Virus record (IMG/VR): IMGVR_UViG_3300028886_000045
Origin: a virus
Lineage: Duplodnaviria > Caudoviricetes
Length of the DNA stretch: 64,000 nucleotides
Strand: one strand, 5' to 3'
Part shown: piece by piece, positions 10,362 to 54,451 of the stretch
Numbering within the stretch: position 1 is the stretch's first letter
How the letters are laid out: the number at the start of each line of letters is the position of its first letter
Made by a program: the position numbers and the translations under genes
Notes under the pieces: model-generated
Told to the model about the DNA's origin: nothing
The model's database searches: none
The model's input: only the letters and a program-made list of their open reading frames with translations

Positions 10362-10616
10362 TTTGGCTCATCCACACCCACATACCTCATCGTACTAAAA
10401 TTTACAAGTTCTTCTATTTCCGCGCCATTGACATACGCTTGCATTACCTCAATGACTTTCCGCGTTTCGTTCTTTGTCATTTCTTGCTTTCCTCATACCA
10501 TTACAAACGCCAAGGATTACAGCCAAAGCGAACATAAGAGCACCGCCCCAACCAAAGACAAATAACAATATCCCCAAAACCAAGGCGAAACACACACTTA
10601 ACTTTAACATAGCACA

Positions 10617-11000
10617 CTAATTTATTTTTACGATTTCCCTTCGTGTCTTTTCGCGTTCAAACTTCCAACAAACCATTTCGTAAAGCGCATCAAAAAGGCA
10701 TTCCGTTGAAGACGTTACTTTCTTTTTTCCATCCCAACAATTCATATAAGATACCTCATGATAGTCACAATGACTTTCCACGGAAACATAGTCCTCATCG
10801 CGTTTGTCTGTTGTCGGTAGCAACGCCATTAATGCAGATTCACTCCAACAAGGGATTGCGCCTTTTTCCAAAACCTTTCCATCCCACACCCAAGGAATGT
10901 TATTGTCAAAGACGGTGTATCGCATATCTGCCGTACTGACATCTACCCCTAATCTGATAAGGTTTTCACTTTGTTGTTCTGTTGTGTATCTTCTTTTCAT
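10617..11000 (-). CDS. phage protein, 'T/SADM..WS.SAL' family
   Basis: Motifs shared with 17156..17518. Confidence 0.7.
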   Translation of the reverse strand: MKRRYTTEQQSENLIRLGVDVSTADMRYTVFDNNIPWVWDGKVLEKGAIPCWSESALMALLPTTDKRDEDYVSVESHCDYHEVSYMNCWDGKKKVTSSTECLFDALYEMVCWKFEREKTRREIVKIN

Positions 11001-38830: not shown

Positions 38831-39160
38831 TTAACCTTTTGAACCGCTTGCACGCCTTACACCGCCCATGTAGGTACTGCGTGAATATTGCTTTTCAAGC
38901 GTTCTTTCGTATAAAGCATCTTGCTCCCCTATTGGTTTTCCCTTTGCTTGTGCGAGCATGGCTTCATACGCCTTTTTATAAGAAGGGGAATTTTGAATGT
39001 TTTTGGCATACCTTTCAGTAATACCCATTACCCTTTGCGCCCTATTCCTAAACTCTTCACTACTTATCTTTTTGGCATCCGCTAACGCCTCATTACGTTC
39101 ACGGATTCGGAACTCTTGGTTTGCCAAATCGCTAATACTTTTTGTCCTTCCCTTTGCCAT
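38831..39160 (-). CDS. small basic protein with C-terminal KG tag
   Basis: MAKGRTKS...QYSRSTYMGGVRRASGSKG*. Confidence 0.85.
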   Translation of the reverse strand: MAKGRTKSISDLANQEFRIRERNEALADAKKISSEEFRNRAQRVMGITERYAKNIQNSPSYKKAYEAMLAQAKGKPIGEQDALYERTLEKQYSRSTYMGGVRRASGSKG

Positions 39161-39172
39161 AACCTATTTTTT

Positions 39173-39517
39173 TTAACCTTTAGAACCACTTGCACGCCTA
39201 ACGCCACCCATGTATGTTGAGCGCGAATATTGGCGTGTTGAAGCCTTTTGTATGTCACGCGCCATAGCACGCAACCTTTCCCTATAATCACCGCTTGCAT
39301 TATTGCGATTAAAGAAAGCGTTCTTCGTCTTTTGGTACGAAGGTGTGCTTTCTATATTCCGCAAATACCTATCACCCGTCCGCGCTATCCTTTCCGTGCG
39401 CGTCCTAAATGTTTCTTCGCTTATCTTTCCGCTATCCCTTAATGCAGTAGCCGTATTATAAGCACGTTGATATTGGTTGTATATCTGCTCTGCGGATTTC
39501 GTTCTTTGCTTTGCCAT
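39173..39517 (-). CDS. small basic protein with C-terminal KG tag
   Basis: MAKQRTKS...QYSRSTYMGGVRRASGSKG*. Confidence 0.85.
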   Translation of the reverse strand: MAKQRTKSAEQIYNQYQRAYNTATALRDSGKISEETFRTRTERIARTGDRYLRNIESTPSYQKTKNAFFNRNNASGDYRERLRAMARDIQKASTRQYSRSTYMGGVRRASGSKG

Positions 39518-39520
39518 ATC

Positions 39521-39652
39521 TTAACCTTTTCCACCACTTGCGCGTCTGATTCCACCCATTGCGCCACCATTAAACGCCCTATCACCTAACGCCCTTCTTA
39601 CATTTCCGCTATATGCCCTACGGAAATATGCCATTCTCATATCTGTACGCAT
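39521..39652 (-). CDS. 43-aa peptide with C-terminal KG tag (absent from ORF track)
   Basis: Hand-translated MRTDMRMAYFRRAYSGNVRRALGDRAFNGGAMGGIRRASGGKG*; start may be a later Met. Confidence 0.8.
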   Translation of the reverse strand: MRTDMRMAYFRRAYSGNVRRALGDRAFNGGAMGGIRRASGGKG

Positions 39653-39667
39653 ACCCTAACCCTTTCT

Positions 39668-40009
39668 TTATCCTTTGCCACCACTTGCACGCCTTACACC
39701 GCCCATATAGGTGGAACGTGAGTATTGACGAGCGTCATTTTTTTCTATATATGGTTTATCTGCTTCAATCAACGACATTCCTGTCAAATGTGCATTCGCC
39801 TTATCCATCCTTTTGACGGTATTCTGATAGGAAGGGGTTTGGCTGATATTATGCGCATATTTCGCCTCTAACCTTGACGCAGTTTCCTTTCGCGTGTCAT
39901 ATTGCCGACTGTTATATCTTCCTTGTGCCAATCCTTCTTGTGCCAAACTCTGAATACGGATAAATTGATTGTATAAATCGTTAATGCTTTTTGTTTTTTG
40001 TTTTGCCAT
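39668..40009 (-). CDS. small basic protein with C-terminal KG tag
   Basis: MAKQKTKS...QYSRSTYMGGVRRASGGKG*; -7 box at 40041. Confidence 0.85.
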   Translation of the reverse strand: MAKQKTKSINDLYNQFIRIQSLAQEGLAQGRYNSRQYDTRKETASRLEAKYAHNISQTPSYQNTVKRMDKANAHLTGMSLIEADKPYIEKNDARQYSRSTYMGGVRRASGGKG

Positions 40010-42435: not shown

Positions 42436-43149
42436 TTAGCCTTTGCTACCCATTGCCCTTCTCGCGCCATTCGCGACACCACCGCTCCGCTCGTTTCTTA
42501 TTATTTCCGCTAACTTATCGTTTCGCGCGTTAATCAAGCGGTCATACGCGGGGTCTTCGTTCTTTTCGCCATAGGACTTATAGGTGTCCATTTTGAAATC
42601 CTCTTGCTTGGTGTTTCTTGCTTTTATCAAGGCACTTAAAGACTTTGGCAAAATCATCGCAACCACATTAGGCTCACCATCCCTTGCTTGGTTATACCCA
42701 GTGGGTTCAAAATGATGATTAAATGGTATATATCCGAAAGCCTTTGCACCAAATTTCGCATACATACTTGGTAAGTTGCTTTTGCCCGTCCCCTCGAAAC
42801 AATCCAAGGAACGACCTCCATTTGCAACCGCGTGCGCCATGATAGTAGCCATGCCACCTTTTACCCCCGAAACATTGTAAACCGAAACCACGTCCCTTCC
42901 GTGCAACGCATATCCGATTTTTCCGTCTTTAGACATAAAGCACCGATATTCGCTTTTGTTCGCATATTCTTTTTGTTCGTGAACATCTACCATCCACCTA
43001 TTCGCGCTTGGAATACTTGCTTTTGCCTTAGATATTGCGTTAAAGAAACGATTTCCGTTTGTTGGTGACAATTCTATATTTGCGTGTTCAATCCCCGCCT
43101 TTGTTAAGGCTTTGAGCACCGCCTTTCCACTTACCGACTTCTTTCTAAC
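42436..43149 (-). CDS. GNAT-like protein with C-terminal KG tag; proposed GTT start (237 aa)
   Basis: Frame open from GTT at 43149 (VRKKSVSGKAVLK) directly after TGA; GGAGG 8 nt upstream; DVVSVY..GG.SLDCF..LP.MY.KFG; ends ARRAMGSKG*. ORF track uses GTG 43119. Confidence 0.7.
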   Translation of the reverse strand, partial: VRKKSVSGKAVLKALTKAGIEHANIELSPTNGNRFFNAISKAKASIPSANRWMVDVHEQKEYANKSEYRCFMSKDGKIGYALHGRDVVSVYNVSGVKGGMATIMAHAVANGGRSLDCFEGTGKSNLPSMYAKFGAKAFGYIPFNHHFEPTGYNQARDGEPNVVAMILPKSLSALIKARNTKQEDFKMDTYKSYGEKNEDPAYDRLINARNDKLAEIIRNERSGGVANGARRAMGSKG

Positions 43150-43161
43150 TCAGCAACCCTC

Positions 43162-43359
43162 CTATTGACTTATGAAATCAGCATAGTCTTTTGGTGACAT
43201 CTTATCACCAATCGCAGTTCTGATTTCCCTATTGGAAACCGCCCCCATTTCATTCTCCAACTCCCTTTTGGTATAAACGGGCTTTCCGTTCTGTTGCATA
43301 GACTCCAACTCCTTTCTGAGTGCGTCCTTATACTTTTCAATCTGCTTTTCTGTTACCAT
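43162..43359 (-). CDS. small hypothetical protein
   Basis: 65 aa between ASCH gene and GTT gene; its TAG overlaps the GGAGG. Confidence 0.7.
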   Translation of the reverse strand: MVTEKQIEKYKDALRKELESMQQNGKPVYTKRELENEMGAVSNREIRTAIGDKMSPKDYADFISQ

Positions 43360-43371
43360 AACTTACACTTT

Positions 43372-43758
43372 TTACTTGTTTATATTTTCGACATCAAGCA
43401 CCGCGCCCAAATGATACCACACTTGACTTTCGTAGTATTCAATGCCGTTTTCTTCAAACGTAATATCGTTTCCGTTCTCGTCCACACAGATAACAAACTC
43501 CGCGCTTTCCACTTCCACCAACATACGCGGTGCGTTCTGTCTCCGTCCGTTTATCAGATACAACGCATCATATTCGCGTGGCTTGATTTCCGCGTCCTCA
43601 TCTTCCATTTCCGCAATATACTTGTTTGCATTGCTTGGATATATGTAGCGGTGCTCTACCTTTTGCCTACCTTGCATGATTTCAACGAAATTGTTTCTTG
43701 TAATCTGTAAGGTAAGCACTTTATGATTCTGTGCGTATTCTTTTACTTTTGCGTTCAT
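43372..43758 (-). CDS. ASCH-domain protein
   Basis: LTLQI..FVEIMQGRQKVEHR..YDALYLING..YHLG. Confidence 0.8.
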   Translation of the reverse strand: MNAKVKEYAQNHKVLTLQITRNNFVEIMQGRQKVEHRYIYPSNANKYIAEMEDEDAEIKPREYDALYLINGRRQNAPRMLVEVESAEFVICVDENGNDITFEENGIEYYESQVWYHLGAVLDVENINK

Positions 43759-43767
43759 ATTCTTTGT

Positions 43768-43846
43768 TTGTTACGACTTTTTAGGGGTTGTTACGACTTG
43801 TTACGAGGGTTGTTACGACACAAAACCGTAACAAAAATCGTTACGA
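43768..43846. repeat. cluster of six (T)TGTTACGA-like motifs
   Basis: Direct copies at 43768, 43788, 43798, 43810, 43838 (TCG variant); inverted CCGTAACAA at 43826. Confidence 0.8.
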
Positions 43847-43859
43847 CCCACCCCCTTTG

Positions 43860-43933
43860 TTGCGGATAAAGGACTCGAACCCTTGACCACTTGCAAGTTA
43901 AACAAGTATGCTAACCAACTGCACCAATCCGCG
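43860..43933 (-). tRNA. non-canonical tRNA: initiator-type acceptor stem, anticodon AAC, U37/U38
   Basis: CGCGGAT-TG-GTGC AGTTGGTTA GCAT-A-CTTGT TTAACTT GCAAG-TGGTC-AAGGG TTCGAGT CCTTT-ATCCGCA-A; promoter 43943..43974; CCA not encoded. Confidence 0.85.
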
Positions 43934-43989
43934 ATGTTGGTACAAAGGTACTAATTTTTTCGCGTCCTTACAAAGTTTTACCAACTTTT

Positions 43990-44424
43990 TTATTCACTTT
44001 GATATTCGTGCAAAGCATCCTCAACCATTTGCAAAGCCTTTCCGTGCTTCTTCTGCAAATCGGGGTACTTCACGCCACGCCTATAATTGTGAAGCAAATC
44101 ATTGTGCTTTACTTTCAATGCAAGCATATTGTGCGAATCTATGATTTTCTGAACGTAGTCAAAATATCCGATTTCCTTTTTTCTGTGGGTTAGCAATTTT
44201 AGGGCTTCAATGCAATCCTCAGATATGCCCAACACTCTTAAATCTTCACCGCACACGTTACAGTCTTCCATAACATCATGAAGAATGCCAACAACTTTCT
44301 CGTTGTAATTCTCACCCATCATGCCAACTGCCAAAGGATGCAGTATATAGGGCTTGTTATCCCTATCATACTGCCCTTCGTGCATTTTGCTTGCATATTC
44401 TATGACTTTGAATATTGATACCAT
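43990..44424 (-). CDS. HD-domain hydrolase, SpoT/Mesh1-like (small alarmone hydrolase type)
   Basis: HEGQ..PYILHP..V..LHDVMED..LLT..VK..D..HN. Confidence 0.9.
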   Translation of the reverse strand: MVSIFKVIEYASKMHEGQYDRDNKPYILHPLAVGMMGENYNEKVVGILHDVMEDCNVCGEDLRVLGISEDCIEALKLLTHRKKEIGYFDYVQKIIDSHNMLALKVKHNDLLHNYRRGVKYPDLQKKHGKALQMVEDALHEYQSE

Positions 44425-44731: not shown

Positions 44732-45430
44732 TTAAGAAAAAACTGAATAATACCTTCTTGACGCTTGCCTTACACCTTGTTTATTTCTGCGTCCCTTGGT
44801 TGTGCCACCGCGTGACTGCTCGTAGTACATATGACCCTCGCCCGCGTTATAACCCGTGGTTCGCTTTATATTAAGGTATTCGTCACGACCGAGTATCTTG
44901 GCAGCACGCGCAGGCGGTTCTTTGGCGTAAATCATCTTTGGCGTATTGACTTGTATCTCAGCCACGACCTTTCCAACCTTGACATTTACGATATTACCAC
45001 TATACCCATCGAATTTGTCTGCCGTTTGCACCTTTGTCCTTATGTGCCTACTATCCGCGCCCAAATCCCTCAGTATCTTAGGAATATCCGCTTTGTTCGC
45101 AACAATCGTTGTCCTTACGGCATCCTTGATGTCTGCGACCTTATCACCAGCCTTGACTTTCCTTTCAATCGAATCCTTACCCTTTAGGTTTATCGGTGTG
45201 ACCCTTGCGCCATACTTCTTAGCAATATCCACCGCCATACCTTGCACTTCACCGCTAACAGCCTTTGCCCTTGACATAAGGCTATCAATCGCGCGATTTA
45301 CTGCCTTTGGTAGTTGCACGTTGGCTTTGCCACTATTCAAGCCACCACCGCCACCGCCTTTCCTTGATGCTATCGACTCCATAAGGAACATACCATAGCA
45401 CTCATATTCTATTCTTTTCAGTATTTCCAT
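44732..45430 (-). CDS. RelA/SpoT-type small alarmone synthetase-like nucleotidyltransferase
   Basis: LK..SIERK, DAVRTTI, GYSG, EIQVNT, H.YYE; Gly6 tract near N-terminus. Confidence 0.8.
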   Translation of the reverse strand: MEILKRIEYECYGMFLMESIASRKGGGGGGLNSGKANVQLPKAVNRAIDSLMSRAKAVSGEVQGMAVDIAKKYGARVTPINLKGKDSIERKVKAGDKVADIKDAVRTTIVANKADIPKILRDLGADSRHIRTKVQTADKFDGYSGNIVNVKVGKVVAEIQVNTPKMIYAKEPPARAAKILGRDEYLNIKRTTGYNAGEGHMYYEQSRGGTTKGRRNKQGVRQASRRYYSVFS

Positions 45431-54378: not shown

Positions 54379-54451
54379 TTGCAGGGGATGGACTCGAACC
54401 ACCGACCACAAGGATATGAGCCTTGTATGCTACCGACTGCACTACCCTACG
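54379..54451 (-). tRNA. tRNA-Met(CAU), initiator-like C1:A72
   Basis: CGTAGGG-TA-GTGC AGTCGGTA GCAT-A-CAAGG CTCATAT CCTTG-TGGTC-GGTGG TTCGAGT CCATC-CCCTGCA-A; promoter 54466..54497. Confidence 0.9.

Follow-up and report, generated by a model that had tools for sequence, protein, structure and literature searches.

A tRNA gene of the valine type (anticodon AAC; 43860–43933, minus strand) and a gene that opens with GTT ~0.7 kb downstream of it on the same strand (42436–43149, the target gene) were analysed in a 64,000-nucleotide stretch of phage DNA (the window; Duplodnaviria, Caudoviricetes, IMG/VR record IMGVR_UViG_3300028886_000045), which is the reverse complement of bases 1–63457 of a 178,667-bp record of ~96% estimated completeness. 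The comparison of this locus with its relatives makes it quite probable that the tRNA is a phage-encoded initiator charged with valine that starts translation at YGA-GUN (Y, pyrimidine; N, any nucleotide), at client genes, including 42436–43149, that seem to have no usable canonical start and to open at the codon read by the anticodon of the tRNA encoded beside them. An earlier note, made from the DNA sequence of the window, had proposed a dedicated valine initiator private to this one gene. The dedicated initiator is largely supported by the comparative evidence (joint variation of anticodon and start codon, repeated anticodon switches and selection on position 1:72); the system, instead of being private to one gene or one phage, turned out to be a widespread family in phages and prophages of Bacteroidota. 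That proteins start with (formyl-)methionine delivered by an initiator tRNA with a CAU anticodon is treated as universal, and we know of no natural genome encoding an initiator tRNA that is devoted to a different codon and amino acid. A literature search for natural non-CAU initiator tRNAs in phages or bacteria returned engineered systems only. If correct, the present proposal would add a first natural case to the orthogonal initiation systems, and would describe a new form of viral control over a virus's own gene set.

The cloverleaf is recognized by both ARAGORN (43859–43933) and the Rfam model RF00005 (43860–43933, minus strand; 49.5 bits with respect to a gathering score of 29), with the acceptor marks and the anticodon loop that had been read from the letters. 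The acceptor end carries C1xA72, G2:C71, C3:G70, G4:C69 and A73. An unpaired 1:72 position is a formylation determinant and blocks EF-Tu and peptidyl-tRNA hydrolase, G2:C71 and C3:G70 are determinants for the formyltransferase, and A35, C36 and A73 are the identity set of valyl-tRNA synthetase (ValRS), all of which are found in the window tRNA. The two features expected of an elongator, a Watson-Crick pair at 1:72 and a purine at position 37, are both missing (C1xA72, U37). The anticodon stem is formed by C27-G43, U28-A42, U29-A41, G30-C40 and U31.G39 so that only 30:40 is present of the three G:C pairs (29:41, 30:40 and 31:39, the 3-GC motif) of canonical initiators, the lack of this triplet of pairs being a caveat of the earlier note, and the loop, U32 U33 A34 A35 C36 U37 U38, has neither their CAU anticodon nor their A37 and A38. 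The Bacteroides host initiator (CGCGGAG...CUCCGCAA, with CxA at 1:72) has pairs 1–6 identical to those of the window tRNA, the Chryseobacterium initiator has a CxU mismatch, which is also found in the Val-type tRNA of a Chryseobacterium prophage, and the loop of the host initiators compared is CUCAUAA.

The start of the target gene is also as first described, with GTT (43149–43147) directly after an in-frame TGA (43152–43150) and 8 nt behind a GGAGG Shine-Dalgarno (SD) sequence (43162–43158). By including G(−5) and C(−4) at 43154–43153, the module GGAGG-gtt-GC-TGA-GTT spans 43147–43162 on the minus strand, and the junction, with a TAG at 43164–62, reads caaTAG GAG GGT TGC TGA GTT AGA AAG AAG TCG GTA AGT GGA AAG GCG GTG. 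The first canonical starts in the frame are the GTG at 43119 and an ATG at 42993. The GTG (43117–43119, minus strand), which the earlier note had listed as an alternative, is disfavoured because the stretch ahead of it varies like coding sequence; the start of all three database homologues is called at GTG. The closest homologue (P0002, 83% identity) is found in locus L007, a 90-kb contig of the European Nucleotide Archive with the gene order and the tRNA(AAC) of the window, where the junction is TAG GAG GGA TGC CGA GTT AGA AAG AAA TCA GTA AGC GGA AAG GCG GTG. Here the TGA is replaced by CGA, GTT is kept, and the 30 nt (10 codons) that lead from GTT to GTG contain three differences, all of them synonymous and in third codon position. 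In loci L009–L011, which encode a tRNA-Val of the same design with a GAC anticodon and a more distant homologue (P0003, 35%), the frame of the target opens with ttgcTGA GTC AAA, 29 codons ahead of the first GTG, and residues R..S.S...V...L.KAG upstream of that GTG are conserved between the L009 and the window proteins. The GAC tRNA of L009 with its GTC start was the first instance of the predicted joint change of anticodon and start codon.

The related loci were gathered by pattern scans of viral contigs, of metagenome contigs and of one genome per prokaryotic species, and a scan for the mRNA motif added more, leading to 265 loci that include some host-comparison sequences. A first, over-strict tRNA pattern gave no matches; a search of viral contigs with the target protein alone yielded no related loci, and blastn of the locus against an annotated phage collection found no match. 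ARAGORN identified 213 tRNA-Val genes (69 distinct sequences) in the gathered loci, with loop UUGACUU in 146 and UUAACUU in 54 of them, the rare loops being CUGACUU, YUUACUU, GUAACUU, CUAACUU, CUAACCU and GUAACUG. The carriers are >200 phage and prophage loci, mostly of Bacteroidota, with Bacteroides, Parabacteroides, Hallella, Barnesiella, Paramuribaculum and Chryseobacterium among the named genera. The presence of the family in named strains or isolates (Bacteroides mediterraneensis Marseille-P2644T, Hallella bergensis DSM 17361, Parabacteroides sp. AM08-6, Chryseobacterium zhengzhouense CGMCC 1.15067 and a Bacteroides intestinalis isolate) makes bench tests realistic.

Client open reading frames (ORFs) were defined as those of at least 40 codons downstream of the tRNA, with GTN right after YGA, no ATG, GTG or TTG in codons 2–8, a basic N-terminus and a terminal Gly, and unique contexts were counted. 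With an AAC anticodon 12 starts are GTT and none is GTC or GTA; with GAC, 14 are GTT, 34 GTC and none GTA; with TAC, all seven are GTA and neither GTT nor GTC is found, and the opposite strand of the same regions, used as the control, contains no such start. This contingency is the wobble pattern expected of A34, G34 and U34, and agrees with the prediction, made with the window alone at hand, that anticodon and start codon would covary over homologous loci containing the tRNA, the ASCH-domain gene that adjoins it and the tagged client gene. When the YGA requirement was dropped, 71 candidates were obtained, with no control match, and the preceding triplet was TGA in 47, CGA in 13 and AGA in three of them, so that the in-frame TGA is not obligatory.

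The association was also recovered in the reverse direction. When viral contigs were scanned for GGAGGNNNGCYGAGTNAGAAR, the motif of the mRNA, >109 loci were obtained. Of the 52 in which an ORF is present and the upstream DNA reaches far enough, 50 have a family tRNA-Val upstream on the same strand, one of the exceptions being a metagenome-assembled genome (MAG) of a giant virus, probably a chance match. In locus L181 (IMGVR_UViG_2791355230_000001) a client-type gene (aggaggaatgcTGA GTC AGA AGA..., encoding VRRSKSYNDL...) was observed with no tRNA within the 10.9-kb locus; the tRNA may be elsewhere on the 57-kb contig or be supplied in trans. From the maximum-likelihood tree of the ASCH proteins, the anticodon changed at least seven times, five to six of the changes being forced by well-supported branches, which indicates at least 5–7 independent anticodon switches. 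By our own grouping, about eight lineages have AAC (the window with L007, the L012 group, L014, L026/L073, L141, L143, L157 and L160), and the starts in these lineages are GTT only. The L160 tRNA differs from the GAC type essentially by G34A alone, and its single client gene starts with TGA-GTT, as does the orthologue beside the GAC tRNA of L153.

In some client ORFs ATG, GTG and TTG are wholly absent, or the first of them is found at codon 30–49 of ~53. The variable sites of the stretch from GTN to the first canonical start fall mostly at codon position 3 (49, versus 19 at position 1 and 17 at position 2), a pattern by which this stretch is coding-like. If these starts are real, gene callers miss or truncate such genes.

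A second line of evidence comes from the tRNAs themselves. Among 48 unique sequences, positions 1:72 are CA in 24, AA in 12, CT in four, TT in three, TC and CC in two each, and TA in one, so that the pair is missing in 47 of the 48. Positions 2:71, 3:70, 4:69 and 5:68 are Watson-Crick paired, the few exceptions being register shifts, 30:40 is G-C or C-G in 47/48, 31:39 is U.G in 41/48, and A73 is found in 46/48. In an alignment of 39 sequences (A2), 1:72 is unpaired in 38, 2:71, 3:70 and 4:69 are invariant, 94.7% of the cells of the cloverleaf pair, and 13 pairs have changes on both sides. The covariation score of 0.526, compared with 0.147 in shuffled alignments, was reached by none of 500 shuffles. 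The covariation of the cloverleaf together with the variety of mismatches indicates functional tRNAs in which an unpaired 1:72, a hallmark of bacterial initiators, is under selection. For contrast, locus L129 contains a true elongator tRNA-Val with G1:C72 and A37. Position 34 is A, G or U, and A35 and C36 are found in all family tRNAs (as partly imposed by the search patterns) except that of L092, which has a CAU anticodon.

The three G-C pairs of the anticodon stem are all kept in few members (L143, L092, L159 and L161). The L092 tRNA (10607–10683, minus strand) is a phage tRNA with a body near-identical to that of a canonical initiator, including the three pairs and CAU, in a UUCAUUU loop, so that the pyrimidines at 37 and 38 also occur with a normal anticodon. 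The tRNAs of L159 (the Kibdelosporangium philippinense chromosome) and L161 (a MAG), both outside Bacteroidota, have C1xU72, the three G-C pairs and a CUUACUU loop with a UAC anticodon; such initiator-type tRNAs could decode GUA or GUG as valine starts.

The start context is extended beyond the codon. Among the 67 unique starts obtained with the YGA filter, which imposes Y at −3, G at −2 and A at −1, position −5 is G in 64, −4 is always C or T, and +4 is a purine in 66 (54 A and 12 G) and C in one, leading to a (GGAGG-N3)-G-Y-Y-G-A-GUN-A context; without the filter, nearly every start still has G(−2) and A(−1). In the tRNA, U37 and U38 are as conserved as G(−2) and A(−1) are in the mRNA. It had been proposed that all seven loop bases pair with the mRNA around the start codon; such pairing holds at the level of the sequence in the window, and the comparison supports a function only for positions 34–37. 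A base other than T at 37 was found in one lineage (L141/L142), as opposed to >90 matches with TT, and in this lineage, with loop CUAACCU, the client starts aac CGG GTT. The lineage with C37 thus has G at −1, i.e. U37:A(−1) became C37:G(−1), a compensatory change. Pairing between 38 and −2 has no support, since the sole G38 variant (L143) keeps G at −2, and a further extension to mRNA positions −4 and −5 with tRNA positions 40 and 41 was discarded, as it fits stems of the GGUAG type and not those of the GCAAG or GCACG types. Y(−3), opposite G39 and behind the weak U31.G39 closing pair, would fit a further pair, possibly.

By taking these features together, the following sequence of events can be envisaged. 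The host ValRS would charge the phage tRNA with valine, as we infer from A35, C36 and A73 and from the work on E. coli AAC initiators outlined below, and the host formyltransferase would recognize its 1:72 mismatch together with pairs 2:71 and 3:70, formylation being probable from the conservation of these acceptor determinants. The tRNA would then bind to the P site in an IF2-dependent manner, being excluded from EF-Tu, and from the P site it would start translation at GUU, or at GUC and GUA in the relatives with GAC and UAC anticodons. That the 3-GC motif has lost its two outer G-C pairs, with U29:A41 and the central pair being kept, would be an adaptation to charging by ValRS, and U37:A(−1), possibly with G39:Y(−3), would make up for the absent 3-GC/A37 module by extending the codon-anticodon helix. 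Translation of the client genes would likely require the presence of the phage tRNA, their products beginning with (formyl-)Val-Arg/Lys, and the purpose could be either the gating of the module or the non-Met N-terminus itself. A more elaborate proposal, to which we give slightly less than even credence, is that the (formyl-)Val initiator defines YGA-GUN as a private extended signal in Bacteroidota phages, that a helix of 4–6 bp (anticodon 34–36, U37:A(−1) and possibly U38/G39 with G(−2)/Y(−3)) replaces licensing by the 3-GC/A37 module, with the ASCH protein as a possible cofactor, and that small basic proteins ending in Gly and having a non-Met N-terminus are gated in this way.

Among known systems, the gut phages with recoded TAG or TGA encode suppressor tRNAs that act in elongation or termination at stop codons. 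The similarity is that a tRNA supplied by the phage gives a codon a new meaning and may gate a set of genes, but the phage Val tRNA would act at initiation, where it would specify which codon starts a protein and a first residue other than Met. In eukaryotes, non-AUG, non-Met initiation is exemplified by CUG with Leu-tRNA and by the intergenic-region internal ribosome entry site of dicistroviruses at Ala or Gln codons; the first amino acid is likewise not Met and the codon not AUG, but these cases use an elongator or no P-site tRNA rather than a dedicated initiator-type gene beside its clients. With bacterial initiator tRNA-fMet (E. coli metZWV/metY and Bacteroides) the phage tRNAs share the unpaired 1:72, G2:C71, C3:G70, G4:C69, A73, in most relatives A11:U24, and the central 30:40 G-C or C-G pair; they differ in having NAC instead of CAU, in the loss of G29:C41 and G31:C39, and in being encoded by the phage beside the client genes.

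Initiator mutants of the GAC/GUC type were reportedly made earlier in the Schulman and RajBhandary laboratories. More recently, an engineered E. coli initiator tRNA, i-tRNA(AAC), was found to initiate only at GUU, giving Val and formyl-Val N-termini, with ValRS charging and formylation as the limiting steps; the rigid stem with the 3-GC motif is suspected of impeding ValRS, to which U29:A41 is favourable, and the middle G30:C40 pair is critical for initiation (bioRxiv 10.1101/2021.05.25.445580; 10.64898/2025.12.21.695813). The window tRNA carries exactly U29:A41 and G30:C40. The engineered and the natural molecules are alike in combining an initiator body with a valine anticodon matched to the complementary GUN codon, the AAC/GUU pair being the same. 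Unlike the engineered tRNAs, which keep the 3-GC motif and A37, the phage tRNAs have U29:A41 or A29:U41 and pyrimidines at 37 and 38, and they form a natural, widespread and evolutionarily maintained family with a conserved YGA before the start. In E. coli tRNAfMet, A37, the 32–38 pair and G29:C41 form a special conformation of the anticodon arm that is tied to the 3-GC motif (PMC2528185). With U37/U38 replacing A37/A38, the 32–38 pair and the A37 base triple of that structure cannot form, and the phage tRNAs have, to judge from their sequences, mostly replaced the 3-GC/A37 module. If the proposal is correct, they would represent evolved answers to the bottlenecks of i-tRNA(AAC), namely the conflict of ValRS charging with the 3-GC motif and the efficiency of initiation, and a natural test of P-site licensing without the 3-GC/A37 module.

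Several observations weigh against a classical initiator charged with valine. Every line of support for it is a comparison of sequences. The family was gathered by patterns that fix parts of the tRNA, so that the frequencies of its features are partly biased by ascertainment, a bias that is lessened, though not removed, by the motif-first search and by scans with a base other than T at 37 or 38. Of the three G-C pairs on which the IF3-checked binding of E. coli initiators to the P site depends, the window tRNA has only one; it has U37/U38 in place of A37/A38, and its D stem contains U11:A24, which is of the elongator type and is found in only the window and L007, the other 46 of the 48 tabulated tRNAs having A11:U24. 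The GTG at 43119 stays usable in the window gene, the covariation of 37 with −1 comes from one lineage, and G(−2) is retained opposite G38 in L143.

The explanation that survives best beside a valine initiator on the classical pathway, although we consider it unlikely, is that the tRNA does read GUN, but through coupled termination and reinitiation, or with a phage factor (perhaps the ASCH protein) replacing the formylation, IF2 and IF3 checks, in which case the amino acid or its formylation may differ. The in-frame TGA just before the start in about two-thirds of the cases, and the stop codon of the upstream gene, often 12–24 nt before the start and sometimes in the same frame, would suit reinitiation, but CGA or AGA replaces TGA in about one-quarter of the starts, and in several lineages the first gene after the ASCH gene has no closely preceding ORF, or one that is out of frame, as in L014. 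The absence of the 3-GC/A37 module of the normal pathway, the near-constant adjacency of the ASCH gene, whose product has an RNA-binding fold, and the reports of Val-tRNA as a poor substrate of the E. coli formyltransferase would also speak for this explanation; the strict conservation of the formylation determinants is, however, hard to explain if formylation and IF2 were bypassed.

Within the window, the ORF upstream of the target gene (65 aa, 43162–43359, minus strand; conserved in L007) ends with the TAG that overlaps the SD sequence and is in frame with the target, as are the corresponding ORFs of L007, L009, L012 and of gene 2 of L014. Its N-terminus resembles by eye that of a 137-aa ORF that precedes the target homologue in L009. 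Read-through or fusion of this ORF with the target was rejected because both TAG and TGA, or TAA and TGA, would have to be read through, with no suppressor among the five tRNAs of the phage genome, and because the frame relation is broken in gene 1 of L014. A sense reading of TGA (code 4) was discarded since an earlier in-frame stop, with no intervening ATG, precedes the TGA in the window and also in L012, where the 30-nt context was read by hand. Translational bypassing of the T4 gene 60 type was dismissed, as the take-off and landing codons do not match. Folding of the mRNA around the start was not significant (z = −0.99), and a structured element there was therefore dismissed as well.

That the tRNA is instead an ordinary elongator tRNA-Val supplementing GUU decoding, with the target gene starting at GTG 43119 with fMet and the GTT being coincidental, is considered very improbable. 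ARAGORN and Rfam do call it a plain tRNA-Val, the GTG exists, U11:A24 and the incomplete 3-GC motif are what an elongator could have, and GTT is a common codon in the phage (19.2 per 1000). However, GTT usage is not above that of GTA or GTG, indicating no special codon demand, and a codon-supply role was rejected on the basis of this unremarkable usage. Moreover, 1:72 is unpaired in 47/48 tRNAs through six types of mismatch, with the true elongator of L129 having G1:C72 and A37, the starts track the anticodon across independent switches, many target ORFs are without any canonical start, and the stretch ahead of the GTG behaves as coding. Even less probable is a tRNA-like decoy or other non-translational RNA (bait for an anticodon nuclease, primer or pseudo-tRNA) beside untranslated small ORFs, which would account for the pyrimidines at 37/38 and the weak U31.G39 closing pair, abnormal in a decoding tRNA, and would recall the phage tRNAs known to evade host nucleases through altered anticodon loops (PMC10264068), but which gives no reason for starts that track position 34, for mRNA position −1 tracking 37, for the variation of the ORFs at third codon positions and the conserved peptide motifs at both of their ends, or for the conservation of the cloverleaf and of the aminoacylation and formylation determinants.

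With respect to the products of the genes that the valine initiator would start, the family clients mostly encode very basic proteins of ~50–120 aa that start with V-R/K-R/K and end with ...G(L/M)S(N/G)G or ...GSKG. In the 237-codon target gene of the window, an N-terminal VRKKS tag and a C-terminal RRAMGSKG tag (42436–42470) flank a core of GNAT-like fold. The latter assignment is tentative and model-based: the protein matches phrog_2563, with function unassigned there, a Pfam search with it gave no match, and the model of the core (predicted local distance difference test, pLDDT, 61.6, from three sequences) has GNAT proteins as all of its top Foldseek matches, at E ~0.01–0.05 and template-modelling (TM) scores of 0.3–0.5. 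Three small paralogues in the window (38831–40009) have ATG starts (MAKxKTKS). The small basic proteins (for example L012 3068–3229, L126 and L081) form a family with C-terminal Gly motifs such as ...RRASGSKG, ...GLSNG and ...GMSGG, and are always found beside genes for a PP-loop (PAPS-reductase-like) protein and a ParB-like protein; a terminal Gly beside an enzyme of the adenylating type hints at C-terminal activation or conjugation. The special start is not restricted to the small tagged proteins, as in the AAC lineage of L073 and L140 the ParB-like gene (VNSTALSKYIKSESVELKRS...) and a gene encoding 149 aa, ~1.5 and 2.3 kb downstream of the tRNA, open with ggaggNNNTGA GTT AA.

The ASCH-domain gene of the window (128 aa, 43372–43758, minus strand) directly adjoins the tRNA, a position conserved in almost every lineage. 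The order is almost always tRNA and then ASCH, with the PP-loop and ParB-like genes next, and it is inverted in L009, where ASCH precedes the tRNA. The window protein alone had no Pfam match; nine of 22 orthologues match the Pfam ASCH family (PF04266; best E value, 3.5e-5), and the AlphaFold2 model (pLDDT 93.8) has ASCH structures, for example 5gus, as top Foldseek matches (probability 0.99, E ~0.05). Between the tRNA and the ASCH gene (43769–43846, minus strand) there are direct repeats, four exact copies of TCGTAACA, and one TCGTAACG copy that is within a short inverted repeat. Four of the five exact TCGTAACA copies of the window cluster here, a pattern that is not significant window-wide, and six (T)CGTAACA-like copies are present at the same place in L007 (3232–3340). 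These repeats look like regulator sites and are candidate protein-binding sites.

Almost all genes of the window are on the minus strand. The Bacteroides promoter consensus is TTTG, a spacer of ~20 nt and TAnnTTTG. A promoter of this type is found at 43943–43974 on the minus strand (TTTG at 43974–43971, a 20-nt spacer and TAccTTTG at 43950–43943), 9 nt ahead of base 1 of the tRNA, bearing out the earlier suggestion that the tRNA has a promoter of its own. The 178.7-kb genome contains six near-identical copies of this promoter, that of the tRNA included. A consensus scan found no intrinsic terminator after the tRNA. The promoter is part of a cassette of ~55 nt (AAAAAGTTGGYAAAA..TTTGYA....GTACCTTTG) with at least six copies genome-wide, that of the tRNA being at 43937–43991 on the minus strand.

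The five tRNAs of the genome include ordinary Arg(CCU), Leu(CAA) and Gln(UUG) species with regard to 1:72, the mismatch being found only in tRNA-Val(AAC) and in a tRNA-Met(CAU) at 54379–54451 (minus strand). The latter has C1xA72, G2:C71, two of the three anticodon-stem G-C pairs (CAAGG/CCUUG) and a CUCAUAU loop, and on these features is probably a phage-encoded initiator tRNA-fMet, so that the phage may carry two initiator-type tRNAs. Just upstream of the tRNA-Val gene, an HD-domain phosphohydrolase (phrog_990) is encoded at 43990–44424 (minus strand), in which some likeness to the HD hydrolases of the RelA/SpoT type can be seen by eye, and further upstream a protein of 232 aa (44732–45430, minus strand) matches a head-morphogenesis PHROG (phrog_7625) and has an N-terminal poly-Gly stretch.

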